Below, in pieces: positions 31,126 to 38,036 of a stretch of DNA of 64,000 bases. The DNA is taken from assembly GCA_964291625.2 (NCBI GenBank), contig OZ220089.1, positions 1,664,001 to 1,728,000 on the forward strand. Direction: 5' to 3'. Position numbers and translations under genes: made by a program. Each line of letters opens with the position of its first letter. Position 1 is the stretch's first letter. This DNA is from Candidatus Latescibacterota bacterium (lineage in GTDB: Bacteria; Latescibacterota; UBA2968; UBA8231). The notes under the pieces were generated by a model. It did not search any database, was not told the DNA's origin, and saw only the letters and a program-made list of their open reading frames with translations.

Positions 31126-31658
31126 CTTCGGCACTCCTCCAGGCGCCGGGCCAGGCCGCCCGCCACCGCCTCGGCCGAGGTCTCCTCCGAGGTGCGCACG
31201 GTGATGTCGGCGGCGCCGTAGAAAGGGGCCCGCTCGGCCAGCATCTCCTCGATCTTTCGGCGCCGCTGATCCGGCGTCAGGCCGGCCAGCAGGGGCCGGT
31301 CCTCCTTGCGGGACAGCCGCTTCAGGATCGACTCCACGTCGGCCTCGACGCAGACGAGGACGGCGCCGGCGCCGCGGATCGCCTCCCGGTTCCGGCTTCG
31401 GGTGATCGCCCCGCCGCCGAGGGCGACGACGGCCCCGTCGAGGGCCGCCGCCGCCCGCACGCAGGCGGACTCCAGCTCGCGGAAGGCTTCCTCGCCGCGG
31501 TCGGCGAAGATCTCGGGGACCGTCTGCCCGGCGCGCTCTTCCACCATCTGGTCGGTGTCGTAGAAGGGGCGGCCGAGACGGGCCGCCAGCAGCCGGCCGA
31601 TGCGGCTCTTGCCGGTGGCCATGAAGCCGGTGAGGAAGATCGGCCGCGCGCGCTCCAC
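31122..31658 (-). CDS. aroK: Shikimate kinase
   Basis: LTGFMATGKS P-loop, GEEAFRELE, LGGG, RPLL; GTG start overlaps the argS TAG. Confidence 0.92.
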   Translation of the reverse strand: MERARPIFLTGFMATGKSRIGRLLAARLGRPFYDTDQMVEERAGQTVPEIFADRGEEAFRELESACVRAAAALDGAVVALGGGAITRSRNREAIRGAGAVLVCVEADVESILKRLSRKEDRPLLAGLTPDQRRRKIEEMLAERAPFYGAADITVRTSEETSAEAVAGGLARRLEECRR

Positions 31659-33367
31659 TACATCTCCTCGGGGGCGCTCATGGCCAGCAGGTCCAGCCCC
31701 GTGCGCAGGACCCCGCGCGCCCCGTCCACGAGCCGCGCCCGCGCCGCCGTCAGACCCTCGTCCCCGGCCACCAGCACGGGCACCTCGTTGTAGAGCTTGT
31801 TGGCCGCCGTGGCCAGCTCCAGCAGGTAGCCGGCCACGTACGACGGCTCGTTCTCCCCGGCCGCGGACTCGACGACGCCGGGGAACTCCGACAACTTGCG
31901 CGCCAGCCGCATCTCCCCGTCCTCCCCCAGGCGTCCGGTGTCGGCGGCCGGGTCCACGGGGCGGCCGTGGCGGCGCAGGATGCTGCAGTAGCGGGCGTGG
32001 GTGTACTGCACGTACGGCCCGGTCTCGCCGTCGAAGTTGAGGACCTCCTCCAGGGAGAAGTTGATGTCCCGGGTGCGGCGGTTGTTGACGTCGGCGAAGA
32101 CCACGGCGCCGATCCCCACCTGGCGCGCCACCTCCGCGGCGCCGGCGAGATCCGGGTTCTTCTCGGCGATGATGCCCTCCGTGAGGGCGATCGCCTTGTC
32201 GAGGACCTCCTCGAGGATGATGATCTCGCCCTTGCGCGTGGCCAGGGCCCGGCCGCGGAAGGACATGAGCCCGAAGGGCGCGTGCTCGCAGCGGTCGATC
32301 CAGTCGACGCCGGCCCGCCGCAGGGCGCCGAAGAGCTGCTCGAAGTGCAGGCTCTGCCGCTTGTCGGTGACGTAGACCATCTTGTCGAAGGCGTGCCGCC
32401 GGTGCCGGTAGAGCAGCGCCGCCAGGTCCCGGCTGTGGTAGGTGCTGGTGCCGTTGGAGGTGCGCAGCATGAGCGGCGCCGGCTGGTCCTCCAGGGGCAC
32501 GATGAGGGCGCCTTCGCTCTCCGCCGCCAGCCCCCGCTCCTCGAAGAAGGCGATCACCTCGTCGAGCCGGCCGGCGTAGTGGCTCTCCCCCAGGGTCTCG
32601 TCGAAGCGCACGCCGAGGATGCCGTAGATCCGCTCCGCCTCCTTGCGGCCCTCCTCCGAGAACCAGCGCCAGAGCCGGGTCATCTCGTCGTCGCCGGCGG
32701 CCAGGGCCCGCAGGCACTCCCGGGCCCGGTCCCGCAGCTCCGGGTGCTCCTCGGCCTCGCGGTTGAAGCGCACGTAGAGGCCCACCAGCTCGCGGATCGG
32801 GTCGGCGCGGATGCGCTCGTCGTCGCCCCAGGCGGCGTAGGCCGCCAGGAGCTGGCCGAAGTTGGCGCCGTAGTCGCCGAGGTGATTGATGCCGACGCAG
32901 CGCCAGCCGAGGAACTCGTGGATGCGGTAGATGGCGTGGCCGATGGCGGTGGAGCGCAGGTGGGCGATGGAGAAGGGCCGGGCCAGGTTCGGGGAAGAGA
33001 AGTCGATGGCCACCGTGCGGCCGGCGCCCTGGCCGCGGGTGCCGTACTCCCGGCCGGCGGCGGCGATCTCGTCGAGGGTGTGGCCGATGAAGGCGGGCCG
33101 GTGGAGGGTGAAGTTGACGTACGGGCCGGCGGCGGCGACGGCGGCGATGCGGCCCCCGGGGCCGGCCTCCGGCTCGATGCGGGCGGCCAGGTCGGCGGCG
33201 ATCTGCGCCGGGTTGCGGCGCAGCTCCTTGGCCAGGACGAAGCACGGGAGGGCGTAGTCTCCCATGCTCTCCTCCGGAGGCACGGCGAGCAGGCCGCGCA
33301 CGGTGGACGGGTCCAGGCCGCCGGCGGCGGCCGTCCTCTCGACGATCTCCTCCAGGAAGGGGTTCAT
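31658..33367 (-). CDS. argS: Arginyl-tRNA synthetase
   Basis: DFSSPNLARPFSIAHLRST (HIGH-like), NHLGDYG, FDGETGPYVQYTHAR, C-terminal PEEM. Confidence 0.93.
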   Translation of the reverse strand: MNPFLEEIVERTAAAGGLDPSTVRGLLAVPPEESMGDYALPCFVLAKELRRNPAQIAADLAARIEPEAGPGGRIAAVAAAGPYVNFTLHRPAFIGHTLDEIAAAGREYGTRGQGAGRTVAIDFSSPNLARPFSIAHLRSTAIGHAIYRIHEFLGWRCVGINHLGDYGANFGQLLAAYAAWGDDERIRADPIRELVGLYVRFNREAEEHPELRDRARECLRALAAGDDEMTRLWRWFSEEGRKEAERIYGILGVRFDETLGESHYAGRLDEVIAFFEERGLAAESEGALIVPLEDQPAPLMLRTSNGTSTYHSRDLAALLYRHRRHAFDKMVYVTDKRQSLHFEQLFGALRRAGVDWIDRCEHAPFGLMSFRGRALATRKGEIIILEEVLDKAIALTEGIIAEKNPDLAGAAEVARQVGIGAVVFADVNNRRTRDINFSLEEVLNFDGETGPYVQYTHARYCSILRRHGRPVDPAADTGRLGEDGEMRLARKLSEFPGVVESAAGENEPSYVAGYLLELATAANKLYNEVPVLVAGDEGLTAARARLVDGARGVLRTGLDLLAMSAPEEM

Positions 33368-33377
33368 CCCGGTTCCC

Positions 33378-34211
33378 TCACGGCTCGATGGCCCGGCGCA
33401 TGGCGTCCACGGGCGGCCGCACCCCGGTCCAGATCTCGAAGGACCGGGCGCCCTGGTGGACCAGCATCCCCAGCCCGTCCAGGGCCCGGGCGCCAGCGGC
33501 CAGAGCCTGCTCCAGCAGACGCGTGCGCAGCGGCTTGTAGACGATGTCGAGGACGGCCATGCCGTCGTGGAGGACGCTCCCGTCGCCCAGGGGCGAGGAC
33601 CCGGCCTCCGGCTCCATGCCGATGGAGGTGGCGTTGATCACCAGTCCCGCCTCGCGCAGGGAGCCGCTCTCCGCCAGCGGCGCCACCCGCACCCGGCCGC
33701 CATCGTCCATGGCCTCGGCCAGGCTCTCGGCCCGGGAGGCGGTGCGGTTCAGCAGGATCACCTCCTCCACCTCCCCGCGGGAGAGCAGGGCGTGGAGGAC
33801 GGCCTTCGCCGCCCCCCCGGCGCCTAGGAGGGCGACCTTCGGCGGCAGCCGCTCCAGGCCGCCCTCGCGCAGACTGGCCAGCACCCCGCAGGCGTCGGTG
33901 TTGTGCCCCACCAGCCGGCCGTCCCGGTGGTCGATGGTGTTCACCGCGCCGATGGCCCGCGCCTCGGGGGCGACCTCGTCGAGGAAGGAGAGGACCGCCT
34001 GCTTGTGGGGCACGGTGACGTTGAGGCCGCGGATCCCGAGGTGGCGCATGGCCGCGCCCACATGGGCGGCGCCCTCCGGCGGCACCGGGAAGGCGACGTA
34101 CACGTAGTCGAGACCGGTGGCGGCCAGGGCCGCGTTGTGCATCGCCGGGGACGCCGAGTGGGTCACCGGGTGGCCGATGACGCCCAGGATCCCGGTCCGC
34201 CCGGAGATCAA
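33378..34211 (-). CDS. aroE: Shikimate dehydrogenase
   Basis: GHPVTHSASP, NVTVPHK, GAVNT, NTD, GAGGAA, NATSIG, MLVHQG. Confidence 0.93.
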   Translation of the reverse strand: MISGRTGILGVIGHPVTHSASPAMHNAALAATGLDYVYVAFPVPPEGAAHVGAAMRHLGIRGLNVTVPHKQAVLSFLDEVAPEARAIGAVNTIDHRDGRLVGHNTDACGVLASLREGGLERLPPKVALLGAGGAAKAVLHALLSRGEVEEVILLNRTASRAESLAEAMDDGGRVRVAPLAESGSLREAGLVINATSIGMEPEAGSSPLGDGSVLHDGMAVLDIVYKPLRTRLLEQALAAGARALDGLGMLVHQGARSFEIWTGVRPPVDAMRRAIEP

Positions 34212-34348
34212 CCGAGGAGATCCTCCAGGAACTGGTCGGCGATCTCGAGGGACTCGCTCCAGCTGGCCCCGTAGAGGACCTTGATCATCAGGACGCCGCC
34301 GCCGAAGACCACGGCGCCGAGCACCAGCAACCGCAACATCGCTCTCAT
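34208..34348 (-). CDS. 46-aa single-TM small protein
   Basis: MRAMLRLLVLGAVVFGGGVLMIKVLYGASWSESLEIADQFLEDLLG; exactly fills the gap, with TGATG and TTGA overlaps. Confidence 0.65.
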   Translation of the reverse strand: MRAMLRLLVLGAVVFGGGVLMIKVLYGASWSESLEIADQFLEDLLG

Positions 34349-35646
34349 CACGCATTCTCCCTGGCCCTTGGGGCCTGCAACCCGTCGAGTAGATCGAAGA
34401 ACCCGGGGAAGGAGGCGTCGACGCACCCGGCGTCGTCGATCTCCATCTCCCCGTGGGCGACGAGACCGGCCACGGCGAAGGCCTGCACCAGTCCGGCGTG
34501 GCCCCGGCCCTCGATGCGCTCCCCCTTGAGCGGCCGCCCGCCCTCGATGACCACGCCCTCCGCATACTCGCCGACCTTGGCCTCGACCCGCCGCAACTGG
34601 CCGACGAGGTGGTCGACGAAGTCGTACTCGCCCCGGCGCAGCGACTCGATGTCGCGGATGATGAACTCCCCCTCCGTCTGGGTCGCCAGCACCGCCAGCA
34701 GGGCCACGTGCTCCAGGAGCTCCCGGGCCCGGCGGTCGGCCACCCGGGTCGCCTTGAGCTTGCCGGAGCCCTTGATCAGCAGATCGACGCTGCCGTCGTC
34801 GGCCCCGGCGATCTCCAGCTCGCCGCCGATCTGGCGCACGAGGTCGACGAAGAGGCGGTTGCCGGGGCGCACCATCACCCGGCGCACGGCGACCTCCGCG
34901 CGGCGTACGGCCAGGGCCGCCACCACCACGGGGAGGGCGCCGGCCAGGTCCCCGGGGACGTCCACGTCCAGGGCCTCCGGCGCCGAGCCCGGCGACAGGG
35001 TCAGGCTGCGCACCGGGGGATCGCCTTCGCGGCGGCTCTCCACCGGGACGCCGCGTTCCTTCCACGGCGCCTCGACGCGGTCGCGGCAGGAGGCCGGCTC
35101 GCGCACCACCGTCGGCCCTTCGGCGAAGAGGCCCGCCGTCAGCAGGCCCAGCTTCACCGATGCCGGCAGGTCCGCCGCCTCGTGGTCGCCGCCGCCGGGG
35201 GCCGAACCGGCCTCCAGCCGAAGGACGCCGTCGGCCTCCGCGGCGGCCGTGACCCCGGCGGGCGCCAGCAGCCGCAGGAGCTGATCCGCCCGGTCCCGCA
35301 CCGCCTCGGGGACCCGCACGCGGCCGGGCAAGGGCTGCCGCGCCAGGATCGCCAGGGCCGGCAGCACCGCCTCCTCCGAGCCTTCCAGATCGAGGACATC
35401 GTCCGCCGGCTCGAGCCCCGCCAGTCCGCGGCCGTCGACGCGGAAGCCGCGGTCCTCGCCCTCGACGCCGACGCCCAGCCGGCGCAGGACGTCCACCGTC
35501 CCGGCCGCCCCGGGGGGCACGCCGCCGATGCGGCTGGTTCCCTCGGAGACGGCCGCCATCCACAGGGCCTGGATCGCCCGGTCGCGCTCGCCCGGCACGC
35601 GGACCTCGCCCCTCAGGCGCGCCGCCCTCGAGACGGTGCGCACCAT
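34348..35646 (-). CDS. AroA (EPSP synthase)-fold protein with a degenerate active site
   Basis: LRGEVRVPG, VPGD and SFPGF scaffold motifs plus its position between tyrA and aroE; most catalytic residues are substituted. Confidence 0.8.
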   Translation of the reverse strand: MVRTVSRAARLRGEVRVPGERDRAIQALWMAAVSEGTSRIGGVPPGAAGTVDVLRRLGVGVEGEDRGFRVDGRGLAGLEPADDVLDLEGSEEAVLPALAILARQPLPGRVRVPEAVRDRADQLLRLLAPAGVTAAAEADGVLRLEAGSAPGGGDHEAADLPASVKLGLLTAGLFAEGPTVVREPASCRDRVEAPWKERGVPVESRREGDPPVRSLTLSPGSAPEALDVDVPGDLAGALPVVVAALAVRRAEVAVRRVMVRPGNRLFVDLVRQIGGELEIAGADDGSVDLLIKGSGKLKATRVADRRARELLEHVALLAVLATQTEGEFIIRDIESLRRGEYDFVDHLVGQLRRVEAKVGEYAEGVVIEGGRPLKGERIEGRGHAGLVQAFAVAGLVAHGEMEIDDAGCVDASFPGFFDLLDGLQAPRARENA

Positions 35647-36767
35647 CAGGGGCGCCTCGCCCGGTAGCCCACGGCCTCGAGGGTCTCCACCGCGCGGTCG
35701 GCCACCCCATCGGCGTCGAACCCCAGCCTCAGGGTCCCTCCCTCTCCCTCGCGCACCTTCATCACCTCGATGTCGTTGATGTTCACGCCCTTCTCCGCCA
35801 GCACCGACGCGATCTCGGCGATCACCCCCGGACGGTCCTCGCAGACGACCAGCACCTCCGCCAGCCGGTGGATGAATCCCTTGGCGTCCTTGGGGATGCC
35901 GTCGCGGACCCGGTTGGCGTACTCGAAGTCGGCCTCCAGGGCGGCGGCGCCCACCTTGTCCCGCACCTCCCCCAGGCGCGCCAGGAAGCGGTCGACCATC
36001 TCGCGGATGCGGTCCGGGTTGGTGGCGCAGATGTCGTTCCAGACCGGCTCGAAGGGGCTGGAGGCGATCCGCGTCAGGTCGCGGAAGCCGCCGGCCGCCA
36101 GGGTCAGGAGCAGGCCCTCCCGCTCCTCGTCGAGGAGGCCGACCATCTCCACGAGGGAGGTGGCCAGCAGCTGCGGCAGGTGGCTGATGGCGGCCACCAC
36201 CATGTCGTGGTCCTCCGCGGACAGCTCGAGGACGCGGGCGCCGAGGCCGCGGAGGAGGTCGCGCAGGCCCTGGTGCAACTCGCCCGGCACGGCGGCGTCG
36301 GGCACGAGGATGTAGATCGCGTTCTGGAACAGGAACGGGTCGGCGGCCGTCACCCCCGACTTCTCGGAGCCGGCCATGGGGTGGCCGCCGAGGAACCAGG
36401 CGTCGGACCGTCCGGAGCCAGCGGCCGCGGCGGCGATGCGGCGCTTGGTGCTGCCGGCGTCGGTGACCAGCGCCCCGGCGGGGACCGCCGCCATCACCCG
36501 CGGCAGGAAGTCGATGATGTGGCGGATCGGCGAGCACAGGAAGACGAGGTCCGCCTCGGCCAGCCCCCGGTCCACCTCCTCGTAGTCCCGGCCCTCGTCG
36601 ACGGCCCCGAGGGCGACGGCCTTCTCCACCGTCTCGGGCCGGCTGATGCCGACGATGGAGCCGGCGTACCCCGTGCGCCGCAGGGCCAGGCCGATGGAGC
36701 CGCCGATCAGGCCGACGCCGACGATGCCGATCCGTTGGAACCGCGAGGCCCGGTTGGCGGTGGTCAC
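35646..36767 (-). CDS. tyrA: Prephenate/arogenate dehydrogenase with C-terminal ACT domain
   Basis: GVGLIGGS, DAGSTK, GGHPMAGSE, SHLPQ, GFRDLTRIA, EDRPGVIA (ACT). Confidence 0.92.
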   Translation of the reverse strand: MTTANRASRFQRIGIVGVGLIGGSIGLALRRTGYAGSIVGISRPETVEKAVALGAVDEGRDYEEVDRGLAEADLVFLCSPIRHIIDFLPRVMAAVPAGALVTDAGSTKRRIAAAAAGSGRSDAWFLGGHPMAGSEKSGVTAADPFLFQNAIYILVPDAAVPGELHQGLRDLLRGLGARVLELSAEDHDMVVAAISHLPQLLATSLVEMVGLLDEEREGLLLTLAAGGFRDLTRIASSPFEPVWNDICATNPDRIREMVDRFLARLGEVRDKVGAAALEADFEYANRVRDGIPKDAKGFIHRLAEVLVVCEDRPGVIAEIASVLAEKGVNINDIEVMKVREGEGGTLRLGFDADGVADRAVETLEAVGYRARRP

Positions 36768-37048
36768 CGCTCCCCCTCTCCCGCGCCCTCGAGGATGCGG
36801 GCCTCGGCCATGATGCGGTCGAAGATGTCGGCGATCGCCTCCCGGCTGAGGGGCCCCTGGTTCAGGGCCTGGAGCCGCTCGATCAGGGCCCGCTCCCGCG
36901 CCCGGTCGCGCACCTGCCGGCCGCTGGCCCGCTTCAGCCGGCCGATCTCTATGGCGTAGCCGAGTCTCTCGTTGATCAGCTCGACGATCCTGTCGTCCAC
37001 CTCGTCGATGCGGGCCCGCCAGTCATCGATGTCCCTGCCGTCGGCCAT
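36764..37048 (-). CDS. Chorismate mutase, AroQ type
   Basis: WRARIDEVDDRIVELINER...IGRLK...RDRARE. Confidence 0.9.
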   Translation of the reverse strand: MADGRDIDDWRARIDEVDDRIVELINERLGYAIEIGRLKRASGRQVRDRARERALIERLQALNQGPLSREAIADIFDRIMAEARILEGAGEGER

Positions 37049-37052
37049 GGGC

Positions 37053-38036
37053 TCACCGCAGCCCCATGGCCCGGCGCACGGACTCCATGGTGGCCTCCGC
37101 CGCCGGCCGCGCCCGCTGCCGCCCCGCCTCGAGGATCCCGTCGATGGTCTCCGGGTCGGCGGTGATCTCGGCGTAGCGCCGCCGCACCGGGGCCAGGGCC
37201 TCCACCACCACCTCGGCCACCTCCTTCTTCAGGTCGCCGTAGCCCTTGCCCTCGAAGTGGGCCTCGATGGCGGCCTTCTCCTGACCGGAGAGGGCGTGAT
37301 GGATGGTCAGCAGGTTGTGGACGCCGGGGCGCTCCTCGTCGAAGCGGATCTCCCGCAGCGAGTCGGTGACGGCGCGGCCGATCCTGCGGCGGATCAGGTC
37401 GGGCTCGTCCAGCAGCCCGATGGCGTGATGCTGCCCCTCCACCGACTTGGACATCTTCTTCGTCGGGTCGTCGAGCCCCATGACGCGGGCCCCCACCTCG
37501 CGGATGACGGGCTCGGGCACGGTGAAGACCTCGCCGTAGAGGTTGTTGAAGCGGCCGGCGATGTCGCGGGCCAGCTCGACGTGCTGCTTCTGGTCGTCGC
37601 CCACGGGCACGACGGATGTCTGGTACAGGAGGATGTCGGCCGCCATCAGCACGGGATAGGTGAAGAGGCCCGCGCCGACCCGCTCGCGGCGGCTGCCGGC
37701 CTTGTCCTTGAACTGGGTCATGCGCTCGAGCCAGCCCATGGGCGTGTTGCAGATCAGGAGCCAGGTCAGCTCCGTGTGCTCGGGCACGTGGGACTGGACG
37801 AAGAGGACGCTGCGCTCCGGGTCGATGCCGCAGGCCACCAGCACCGCCGCCAGCTCCCGCACCCTGGACCGCATCTGGGCCGGCTCGTAGGGCACGGTGA
37901 TGGCGTGCTCGTCGACGATGCAGAAGTAGTTGTCGTAGCGCTCCTGGTCGGCCACCCAGTTGCGGATGGCGCCGATGTAGTTGCCCAGGTGGGGCTCGCC
38001 CGACGGCTGGATGCCGGAGAACACGCGCGGGGCCAC
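37053..38036 (-). CDS. trpS: Tryptophanyl-tRNA synthetase
   Basis: SGIQPSG, HLGNY, YPVLMAADIL, GDDQKQH, KMSKS. Confidence 0.96.
   Translation of the reverse strand: MAPRVFSGIQPSGEPHLGNYIGAIRNWVADQERYDNYFCIVDEHAITVPYEPAQMRSRVRELAAVLVACGIDPERSVLFVQSHVPEHTELTWLLICNTPMGWLERMTQFKDKAGSRRERVGAGLFTYPVLMAADILLYQTSVVPVGDDQKQHVELARDIAGRFNNLYGEVFTVPEPVIREVGARVMGLDDPTKKMSKSVEGQHHAIGLLDEPDLIRRRIGRAVTDSLREIRFDEERPGVHNLLTIHHALSGQEKAAIEAHFEGKGYGDLKKEVAEVVVEALAPVRRRYAEITADPETIDGILEAGRQRARPAAEATMESVRRAMGLR

Follow-up and report, generated by a model that had tools for sequence, protein, structure and literature searches.

In passages of Song et al. (2005, BMC Biol 3:13; PMC1173090) the order tyrA then aroF, within the string hisHb > tyrA > aroF, is described for many bacteria, aroF being there the gene for EPSP (5-enolpyruvylshikimate 3-phosphate) synthase, called aroA here. 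The same passages describe a TyrA–AroF protein of Pseudomonas syringae in which approximately 200 N-terminal AroF residues were lost when a stand-alone aroF arrived, probably by lateral transfer, and suggest that the AroF remnant might act as a regulatory domain; elsewhere the article calls the event a 'C-terminal truncation'. Apart from this remnant, our literature search found no description of a catalytically dead EPSP synthase (EPSPS). Here we analyse a 64,000-nucleotide stretch of a Candidatus Latescibacterota bacterium (contig OZ220089.1, positions 1,664,001 to 1,728,000; hereafter the window), which belongs to a genome of 5.9 Mb in two contigs that is approximately 95% complete. Directly after tyrA it carries a gene which keeps the EPSPS fold, has had almost all of its residues for substrate binding and catalysis replaced, and is probably conserved as a pseudoenzyme. 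This gene is hereafter denoted pAroA:

34348..35646, minus strand: pAroA, a 432-residue gene of the EPSP synthase fold without the catalytic and substrate-binding residues (from translation, PF00275, alignments and AlphaFold)

The open reading frame (ORF) comprises 432 uninterrupted codons (translation of 34348–35646, minus strand), and its GC content at third codon positions (GC3), 0.95, lies within that of ten neighbouring genes (0.91–0.99); an earlier note on this DNA, made from the letters without database searches, had described an intact 432-residue frame with host-like codon usage, and both observations hold. The protein matches the Pfam family PF00275 (EPSP_synthase) over residues 8–419 with 133.6 bits, against a gathering cut-off of 22.8. 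It scores only 141.1 bits on the aroA equivalog TIGR01356 (cut-off 287.25) and 33 bits on the MurA equivalogs (TIGR01072 and NF006873, cut-offs 297–393). The top NCBIfam model was NF011381, bifunctional prephenate dehydrogenase/EPSP synthase, with 153.9 bits, and the NCBIfam scan matched no other family above its cut-off. pAroA is thus a member of the PF00275 fold family that falls short of the models defining AroA and MurA. Among solved structures its closest relatives by phmmer are of class II (3rmt at 2e-42; 3tr1 and 3roi at 2e-36), and the E. coli-type EPSP synthases match at only 3e-4 to 6e-9. Relatives of pAroA are named 'hypothetical protein' by NCBI and, for some, 'EPSP synthase' by JGI.

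The state of the active site was compared by phmmer alignment to 3rmt, 3tr1 and 3roi, and by a MAFFT alignment of 79 members of the pAroA clade with 39 canonical AroA sequences. E. coli residue numbers are given as we take them to be, and the label class II follows the earlier note. In pAroA the motif PGDKSISHR has become PGERDRAIQ (residues 18–26), GNSGTTxR has become EGSEEAVLP (88–96), SAQVK PASVK (161–165), IDE LEH (311–313), LRVKESDR LRRGEYDF (336–343) and DHRIAM HAGLVQ (383–388), all of them substitutions that the earlier note had listed and each of which is seen against both the solved class II structures and the 39 canonical sequences. The same motif columns are replaced throughout the 79-member clade, mostly by variable residues. 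At the site for shikimate 3-phosphate (S3P; E. coli K22, S23, R27, S169/S170/Q171 and K340) the aligned residues are R21, D22, Q26, P161/A162/S163 and G339, and these vary across the clade. At the phosphoenolpyruvate (PEP) and catalytic site (E. coli R124, D313, E341, R344, H385 and R386), arginines are replaced by D118, F343 and G385, and the histidine by A384. No clade member (0/79) has lysine at residue 21 or at residue 339, which identifies a family-wide state as opposed to chance or sequencing error.

The losses named in the earlier note are therefore real and clade-wide, with one qualification: it had counted the equivalent of D313 as lost, and this position, E312 in pAroA, has undergone only a conservative change and is Asp in 44/79 clade members. 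Together with E340, the equivalent of E341, it is the only such position that is still acidic in pAroA; in the MAFFT alignment K165, R337 and D342 are also retained in the clade. One further loss had escaped the note. The column of the canonical 'RP' arginine, which we take to be E. coli R124, is R in 39/39 canonical sequences, and in the clade it is E in 45/79 and D in 19/79, thus acidic in 64/79.

Nothing in the pAroA sequence appears to break the EPSP synthase fold. The AlphaFold2 model, built with the 79-sequence alignment, is predicted with a pLDDT of 93.5 and a pTM of 0.90, and in a Foldseek comparison with the PDB its top matches were all EPSP synthases, the best being 3roi_B (apo Coxiella; TM-score 0.81). 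A PDB match of the single-domain relative described below, 9a7b_B, belongs to an integrative model of a MurA2–MurA1 pair; it implies that paralogues within the fold family may associate, and offers a lead for pAroA with the second AroA of its genome.

The genome of the window contains three PF00275 loci, namely pAroA, an aroA on contig 2 and a murA, which is also on the other contig (TIGR01072, 441.9 bits). The second aroA (contig 2, 825912–827156) scores 343.8 bits on TIGR01356, for which the cut-off is 287, and in the alignment it carries all catalytic residues. As its nearest solved relatives are the EPSP synthases of Klebsiella, Colwellia, E. coli and Vibrio, we call it class-I-like (type B). 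The earlier note had supposed a functional aroA elsewhere, and the genome search supports this with a complete gene. To judge from these residues, pAroA would no longer make EPSP, and the aroA on contig 2 presumably does. A few unusual residues were seen in type B enzymes: that of the window's genome has Asn at the S23 position (SKNYTAR), and those of loci L054, L055, L060, L061, L063, L064 and L070, from other genera, have Gln or His at K340 (RxQE or RxHE in place of RxKE) in sequences that are otherwise complete.

To place these genes in context, 168 genomes from the phylum were searched with TIGR01356 and with a profile built on the pAroA clade (A1). An aroA above the TIGR01356 cut-off is present in 153/168. 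In the family of the window (f1) nine genomes lack one, and five of these were inspected. G149 has an extra class-I-like ORF of 426 residues with the motifs present, G158 (a congener of G157) has an extra open frame of 447 residues with a PF00275 match in two pieces, and G095 and G101 have fragments at contig ends; in G157 (genus g18, 90% complete) no candidate functional aroA was found, only murA and the dead copy, possibly because of an assembly gap. pAroA itself was matched, at full length, in 72/75 other f1 genomes, which span 18 genera, and the three without a match are 58–86% complete. Stops that appeared inside the genome matches of G144, G138 and G003 were set aside, since each has an intact ORF of 401–465 residues and the stops lie at the match edges. 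The names under which close relatives are deposited disagree (Gemmatimonadaceae, Gemmatimonadetes, Handelsmanbacteria, Planctomycetota and Latescibacterota), and the genome search places these relatives in one phylum.

Selection on pAroA was estimated as the ratio of non-synonymous to synonymous substitution rates (dN/dS) by the method of Nei and Gojobori (NG86), with neighbouring genes as internal controls. Over 36 pairs within genus g1, pAroA gave 0.13–0.40; for the same pairs tyrA gave 0.05–0.35, the type B aroA 0.075–0.22, and the small gene sm46 that follows pAroA 0.00–0.30. Fourteen further pairs from separate lineages were computed for whichever gene occupies the place of pAroA after tyrA (hereafter the slot), and gave 0.10–0.31 with bootstrap upper bounds of at most 0.42. 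The slot gene exceeds tyrA in 11/11 pairs where both could be computed, its constraint being relaxed approximately 1.2 to 2.4 times relative to tyrA and far from neutral. Values so far below 1 argue that there is no neutral decay. Amino-acid identity falls to approximately 41%, whilst 15 columns stay invariant and the fold signal persists. The features by which a pseudoenzyme is recognised are thus found together: homology to an enzyme with family-wide loss of catalytic residues, an active counterpart for the reaction (the aroA on contig 2), and purifying selection (dN/dS 0.10–0.40 in 50 pairwise comparisons), the last being a check that the earlier note had proposed.

The two halves of pAroA differ in constraint. 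One domain of the EPSPS fold is made up of the N-terminal strand and the C-terminal half, which gives the following division:

34963..35595, minus strand: pAroA residues ~18–228, EPSPS domain II, the less constrained half
34351..34962, minus strand: pAroA residues ~229–432, the bulk of EPSPS domain I, better conserved
35596–35646, minus strand: pAroA residues 1–17, the N-terminal strand, which also belongs to domain I

Both halves are under purifying selection, with dN/dS higher for residues 21–230 than for residues 231–425 in 9/10 pairs, and column conservation in f1 of 0.54 and 0.66, respectively. In 21/21 genomes of genus g31 (family f4), and in 2/3 genomes of family f2, the slot protein has only about 215–227 residues. 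The first 13–16 residues of these short forms align with the N-terminal strand and are followed directly by 'PGD' near residue 230; given the make-up of the domains, these junctions mean that the deletions remove exactly domain II. The two deletions are separate on the tree, that of g31 lying beside the full-length g27 gene (support 99) and that of f2 being basal, and a third, deeper truncation is seen in G040 (ORF of ~160–170 residues). A truncated g31 pair gave a dN/dS of 0.167 [0.11–0.24]. For a natural single-domain form of 222 residues from g31, the predicted model has a pLDDT of 93.4 and superposes on one EPSPS domain with TM-scores of 0.77–0.80 and a root-mean-square deviation of ~2.3–2.7 Å (Foldseek). 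We infer that the retained value of the protein lies mainly in domain I, which is the more constrained half and survives alone in two independent sister lineages.

The origin of pAroA is best read from its surroundings. The neighbouring genes in the window are:

35646..36767, minus strand: tyrA, prephenate dehydrogenase with a C-terminal ACT domain (Pfam PDH_N, PDH_C, ACT)
34208..34348, minus strand: sm46, a conserved 46-residue single-pass membrane ORF, with no Pfam family
33378..34211, minus strand: aroE, shikimate dehydrogenase, named by homologue matches; TTG start
36764..37048, minus strand: chorismate mutase-like ORF upstream of tyrA, in the conserved string; name from sequence and context
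31658–33367, minus strand: arginyl-tRNA synthetase-like gene between aroE and aroK, named from a reading of the sequence
37053–38036, minus strand: tryptophanyl-tRNA synthetase-like gene between the chorismate mutase and trpC, named from a reading of the sequence

The stop codon of tyrA and the ATG of pAroA overlap by one base (TGATG, 35648–35644), as do the stop of pAroA and the ATG of sm46 (TGATG, 34350–34346), which bears out the coupling on both sides described in the earlier note; the stop of sm46 in turn overlaps the TTG start of aroE (TTGA, 34211–34208). Related loci share the string trpD-trpC-trpS-CM-tyrA-[slot]-sm46-aroE-argS-aroK-aroB (CM, chorismate mutase), and in almost all of them tyrA immediately precedes the slot gene. 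Both tRNA synthetase-like genes hold the same operon place across the family of the window.

Two types of apparently functional aroA occur in the phylum: type A, of class II, and type B, which is class-I-like and lies elsewhere in the genome. Type A occupies the slot in L039 (family f9), L040 (f7) and L093 (f5), in all three with sm46 directly downstream and in L039 and L040 with tyrA upstream, and it is the single aroA-type match in each of these genomes. These proteins keep 25/25 tabulated catalytic and motif positions, score 402–418 bits on TIGR01356 and, with 340–417 bits on profile A1, are the closest canonical sequences to the pAroA clade. The conserved gene string makes pAroA a positional orthologue of class II aroA, with which its class II-biased scores agree. 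By position, pAroA descends from a class II aroA whose ancestral place was after tyrA in the aromatic amino-acid operon of Latescibacterota.

In every family that has type B together with a slot gene, the slot gene is degenerate. The f1 slot holds the clade of the window; that of f3 and f4 holds a second degenerate clade with other replacements (D/E-D/E-D at 188–190, E313, G339 and C343, with R385 kept); and that of f10 (L088, L089, L090, L092 and L096) holds a third, highly divergent group of 445–465 residues, which reaches only 100–147 bits on either profile and has lost the catalytic residues, a canonical aroA being present elsewhere in the genome. Families f8, f13 and f14 have type B aroA and no slot gene. 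The change of K339 to Gly is found in 82% of f1 and 100% of f3/f4 sequences, a shared state that fits one ancient loss in a common ancestor. The architecture of TyrA was considered as a correlate of these states and dropped, TyrA being of full length, including the ACT region, in families without a slot gene. The only aroA of L043 and L044 (f6; genomes of 1.9–2.5 Mb) is class II-like, with K for the arginine of GNSGTTxR and T for the glutamine of SAQ; its best TIGR01356 E-value is ~4e-68, read as below the cut-off, and sm46 is on another contig.

In a quick maximum-likelihood tree (LG+G4) each degenerate group forms a clade (support 100, 95 and 100), the canonical sequences fall all together, and the degenerate clades lie near the MurA root. 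This placement most likely reflects long-branch and shared-constraint attraction, and the tree does not show the origin of these genes. Approximately unbiased (AU) tests did not reject the grouping of all degenerate genes in a single clade (p 0.50 and 0.51), nor that of degenerate and class II genes in one (p 0.51), results which are compatible with one origin but no proof of it.

The small downstream gene was examined as a specific partner of pAroA. Its product combines a single predicted membrane helix with an acidic tail (consensus ...SWxESxEIADQFVEDLLG). The gene, sm46, is present as a single copy in 147/168 genomes, nearly always just upstream of aroE, and is under purifying selection. 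It also follows the canonical class II aroA of L039, L040 and L093, precedes aroE in f13 where there is no AroA-like gene, and in f6 lies on a contig other than that of aroA. Occurring after canonical and dead aroA alike, and also in the absence of either, sm46 goes with the shikimate operon rather than with the dead gene, and was rejected in that role.

Sequence archives give some indication of habitat and expression. At least a third of sampled words were found in 20/24 runs listed, from 13 studies; 11 of those 20 listed runs carry a sponge metagenome label, and near-identical DNA occurs in sponge metagenomes. The contigs of four runs were compared with the window. Those of a metatranscriptomic library, X2, cover 34424–34923 (3 differences) and 35416–36936 (19 differences), the latter spanning the tyrA/pAroA junction, and near-identical pieces are also found in the DNA run X3 from another study. 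The X2 contigs are a weak hint that pAroA is expressed.

Taken together, these observations make it probable that pAroA has been conserved as a pseudoenzyme without catalysis, valued mainly for its domain I; its role would most likely be one of protein–protein contact. The earlier suggestion of a candidate pseudoenzyme with a functional aroA elsewhere is thus the best reading, given the family-wide losses, the second aroA and the purifying selection. In the sequence of events we envisage, a second, class-I-like aroA elsewhere in the genome would have allowed the class II copy in the operon to lose essentially every S3P, PEP and catalytic residue, whilst the two-domain fold was kept under purifying selection; pAroA would then serve aromatic amino-acid synthesis as the partner, structural or regulatory, of an operon enzyme with which it is co-translated. 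A protein–protein role is favoured by the translational coupling of pAroA to tyrA on its upstream side and to both sm46 and aroE on its downstream side. TyrA would be the leading candidate partner, because natural TyrA–EPSPS fusions exist and P. syringae offers a parallel case; prediction of a TyrA–pAroA complex gave an ipSAE of 0.00 in both runs, in which the controls were not folded, and counts neither for nor against this. Binding of a ligand at the former active site is less probable, as the pocket residues are not the same from one degenerate lineage to another and deletion of half the cleft is tolerated. For the same reasons, the ligand sensor that the earlier note had entertained is disfavoured, the pocket residues not being conserved between lineages and the substrate-side domain being dispensable.

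A more specific version, which we put forward tentatively and regard as less likely than not, is that domain I is a dedicated non-catalytic subunit for TyrA, or for an AROM-like complex formed by AroB, AroK and AroE, to which it binds and which it stabilises or regulates, and that this second job was already present in the ancestral class II AroA. If so, the ancestral job would explain why the protein has outlived its own active site, and the same logic would cover the dead EPSPS domain fused with TyrA in the unrelated P. syringae.

Several points weigh against the pseudoenzyme reading. The loss of enzymatic function is deduced from the residues present. NG86 is crude at a GC3 of 0.95, with saturation of dS in the deepest pairs; the AlphaFold alignments include relatives, so that high confidence is expected for a known fold; and the contigs of the X2 RNA library may derive from contaminating DNA. 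G050 (95% complete) has no slot gene, with tyrA followed directly by sm46 and aroE, in a genus whose 14 other species all keep it. In f8, f13 and f14 TyrA is of full length with no AroA-like gene within 1.5 kb, from which it follows that TyrA as such does not need pAroA. No conserved interaction surface was found, nor a polar residue conserved throughout the degenerate lineages but missing from canonical enzymes; G339 and G359 are the only derived states common to the degenerate lineages. R264, which is invariant in all degenerate groups, was considered as a residue specific to the dead copies and dropped, since it probably corresponds to the arginine of the canonical 'TR', displaced by an indel. 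Finally, f1 has conserved new residues in its pocket, where Asp has become E20 in 76/79 sequences, His has become R190 in 75/79, Glu has become H or Q313 in 73/79 and Arg has become E or D118 in 64/79. These fit a remodelled pocket as well as they fit a structural role, and could equally be interdomain contacts.

The last point supports neofunctionalisation, in which the f1 cleft has been rebuilt with conserved polar residues and binds another ligand or catalyses another reaction. The retention of K165, R337 and D342 and the purifying selection on both halves are in keeping with this, but f3 and f4 differ at the same positions (acidic at 188–190, E313), f10 has unrelated residues there, g31 and f2 do without domain II and so without one side of the cleft, and no other NCBIfam family is matched above its cut-off. 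We therefore regard neofunctionalisation as unlikely.

We consider it improbable that pAroA is a decaying relic without a function of its own, which survives because it lies between coupled genes and because a misfolded product of a well-expressed operon would be harmful. Its overlap with neighbours at both ends, the looser selection than on tyrA in 11/11 pairs, the stepwise reduction in sister lineages (excision in g31 and f2, the ~160–170-residue ORF of G040, loss in G050) and the ease with which long open frames persist at 72–76% GC would all be accounted for. Against this, the 14 lineage pairs with dN/dS of 0.10–0.31 and upper bounds of at most 0.42 include truncated forms; the gene is intact in 72/75 genomes of an 18-genus family and in all 21 g31 genomes; at ~41% identity the fold signal and 15 invariant columns persist; and the deletions coincide with a single structural domain, the other being left able to fold, which is not expected of random decay. 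The earlier note would have read a canonical or decayed gene at this place in close relatives as simple drift: formally such states do occur, the slot gene being canonical in other families, domain-deleted in sister lineages and lost in one species, but the selection data contradict simple drift. That pAroA still works as an EPSP synthase through a highly unusual active site is the least credible account and most improbable. In its favour, the fold is complete, the gene has stayed in the shikimate operon, and some relatives bear the JGI label EPSP synthase; but near-invariant canonical positions have changed to chemically unlike residues that vary in the clade, its 141 bits compare with an equivalog cut-off of 287, and the genome contains a complete aroA besides.

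On the pseudoenzyme reading, this locus would be a natural case in which an enzyme of an essential pathway became a pseudoenzyme after its displacement by a second gene of the same function. One phylum shows all stages, from the canonical enzyme through the full-length dead copy and the single-domain derivative to complete loss, so that the persistence of dead enzymes can be tested directly. It also suggests that class II EPSP synthase may have a further, non-catalytic job, connected with TyrA or with the shikimate enzymes. Since relatives carry the EPSP synthase label in some databases, metabolic reconstructions and predictions of glyphosate sensitivity made from gene catalogues would count the wrong gene in these sponge-associated bacteria.

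Compared with the solved class II EPSP synthases (3rmt from Bacillus halodurans; 3roi, 3slh and 3tr1 from Coxiella burnetii; 2gg4, CP4), pAroA has the same two-domain fold and length at 23–28% identity, but other residues stand in place of the Lys, Arg, Ser, Gln and His of the S3P and PEP sites. Its operon position after tyrA is that of aroF in many bacteria, as described in the passages of Song et al., and the canonical aroA genes of L039, L040 and L093 share its slot neighbours but have all 25 positions intact. In fungal AROM (6hqv, 7u5t) the EPSPS fold sits among 3-dehydroquinate (DHQ) synthase, shikimate kinase and shikimate dehydrogenase, and the operon of pAroA contains aroB, aroK and aroE; unlike pAroA, the AROM domain is catalytic and covalently fused, and a scaffold-like role of any kind for pAroA is speculation.

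The closest parallel is that of P. syringae, as far as the same passages describe it: an EPSPS moiety linked to TyrA loses catalysis beside a second aroA, and a remnant is kept. The genome of the window likewise has a second aroA of a different type elsewhere. pAroA and TyrA are separate ORFs with no fusion, and pAroA in the window is of full length, the loss of approximately 200 residues described for P. syringae being paralleled instead by the excision of domain II in g31 and f2. Whereas the P. syringae remnant is, by that account, fused to TyrA and described from one species, pAroA stands alone, is of full length in f1, and is conserved across a whole class.

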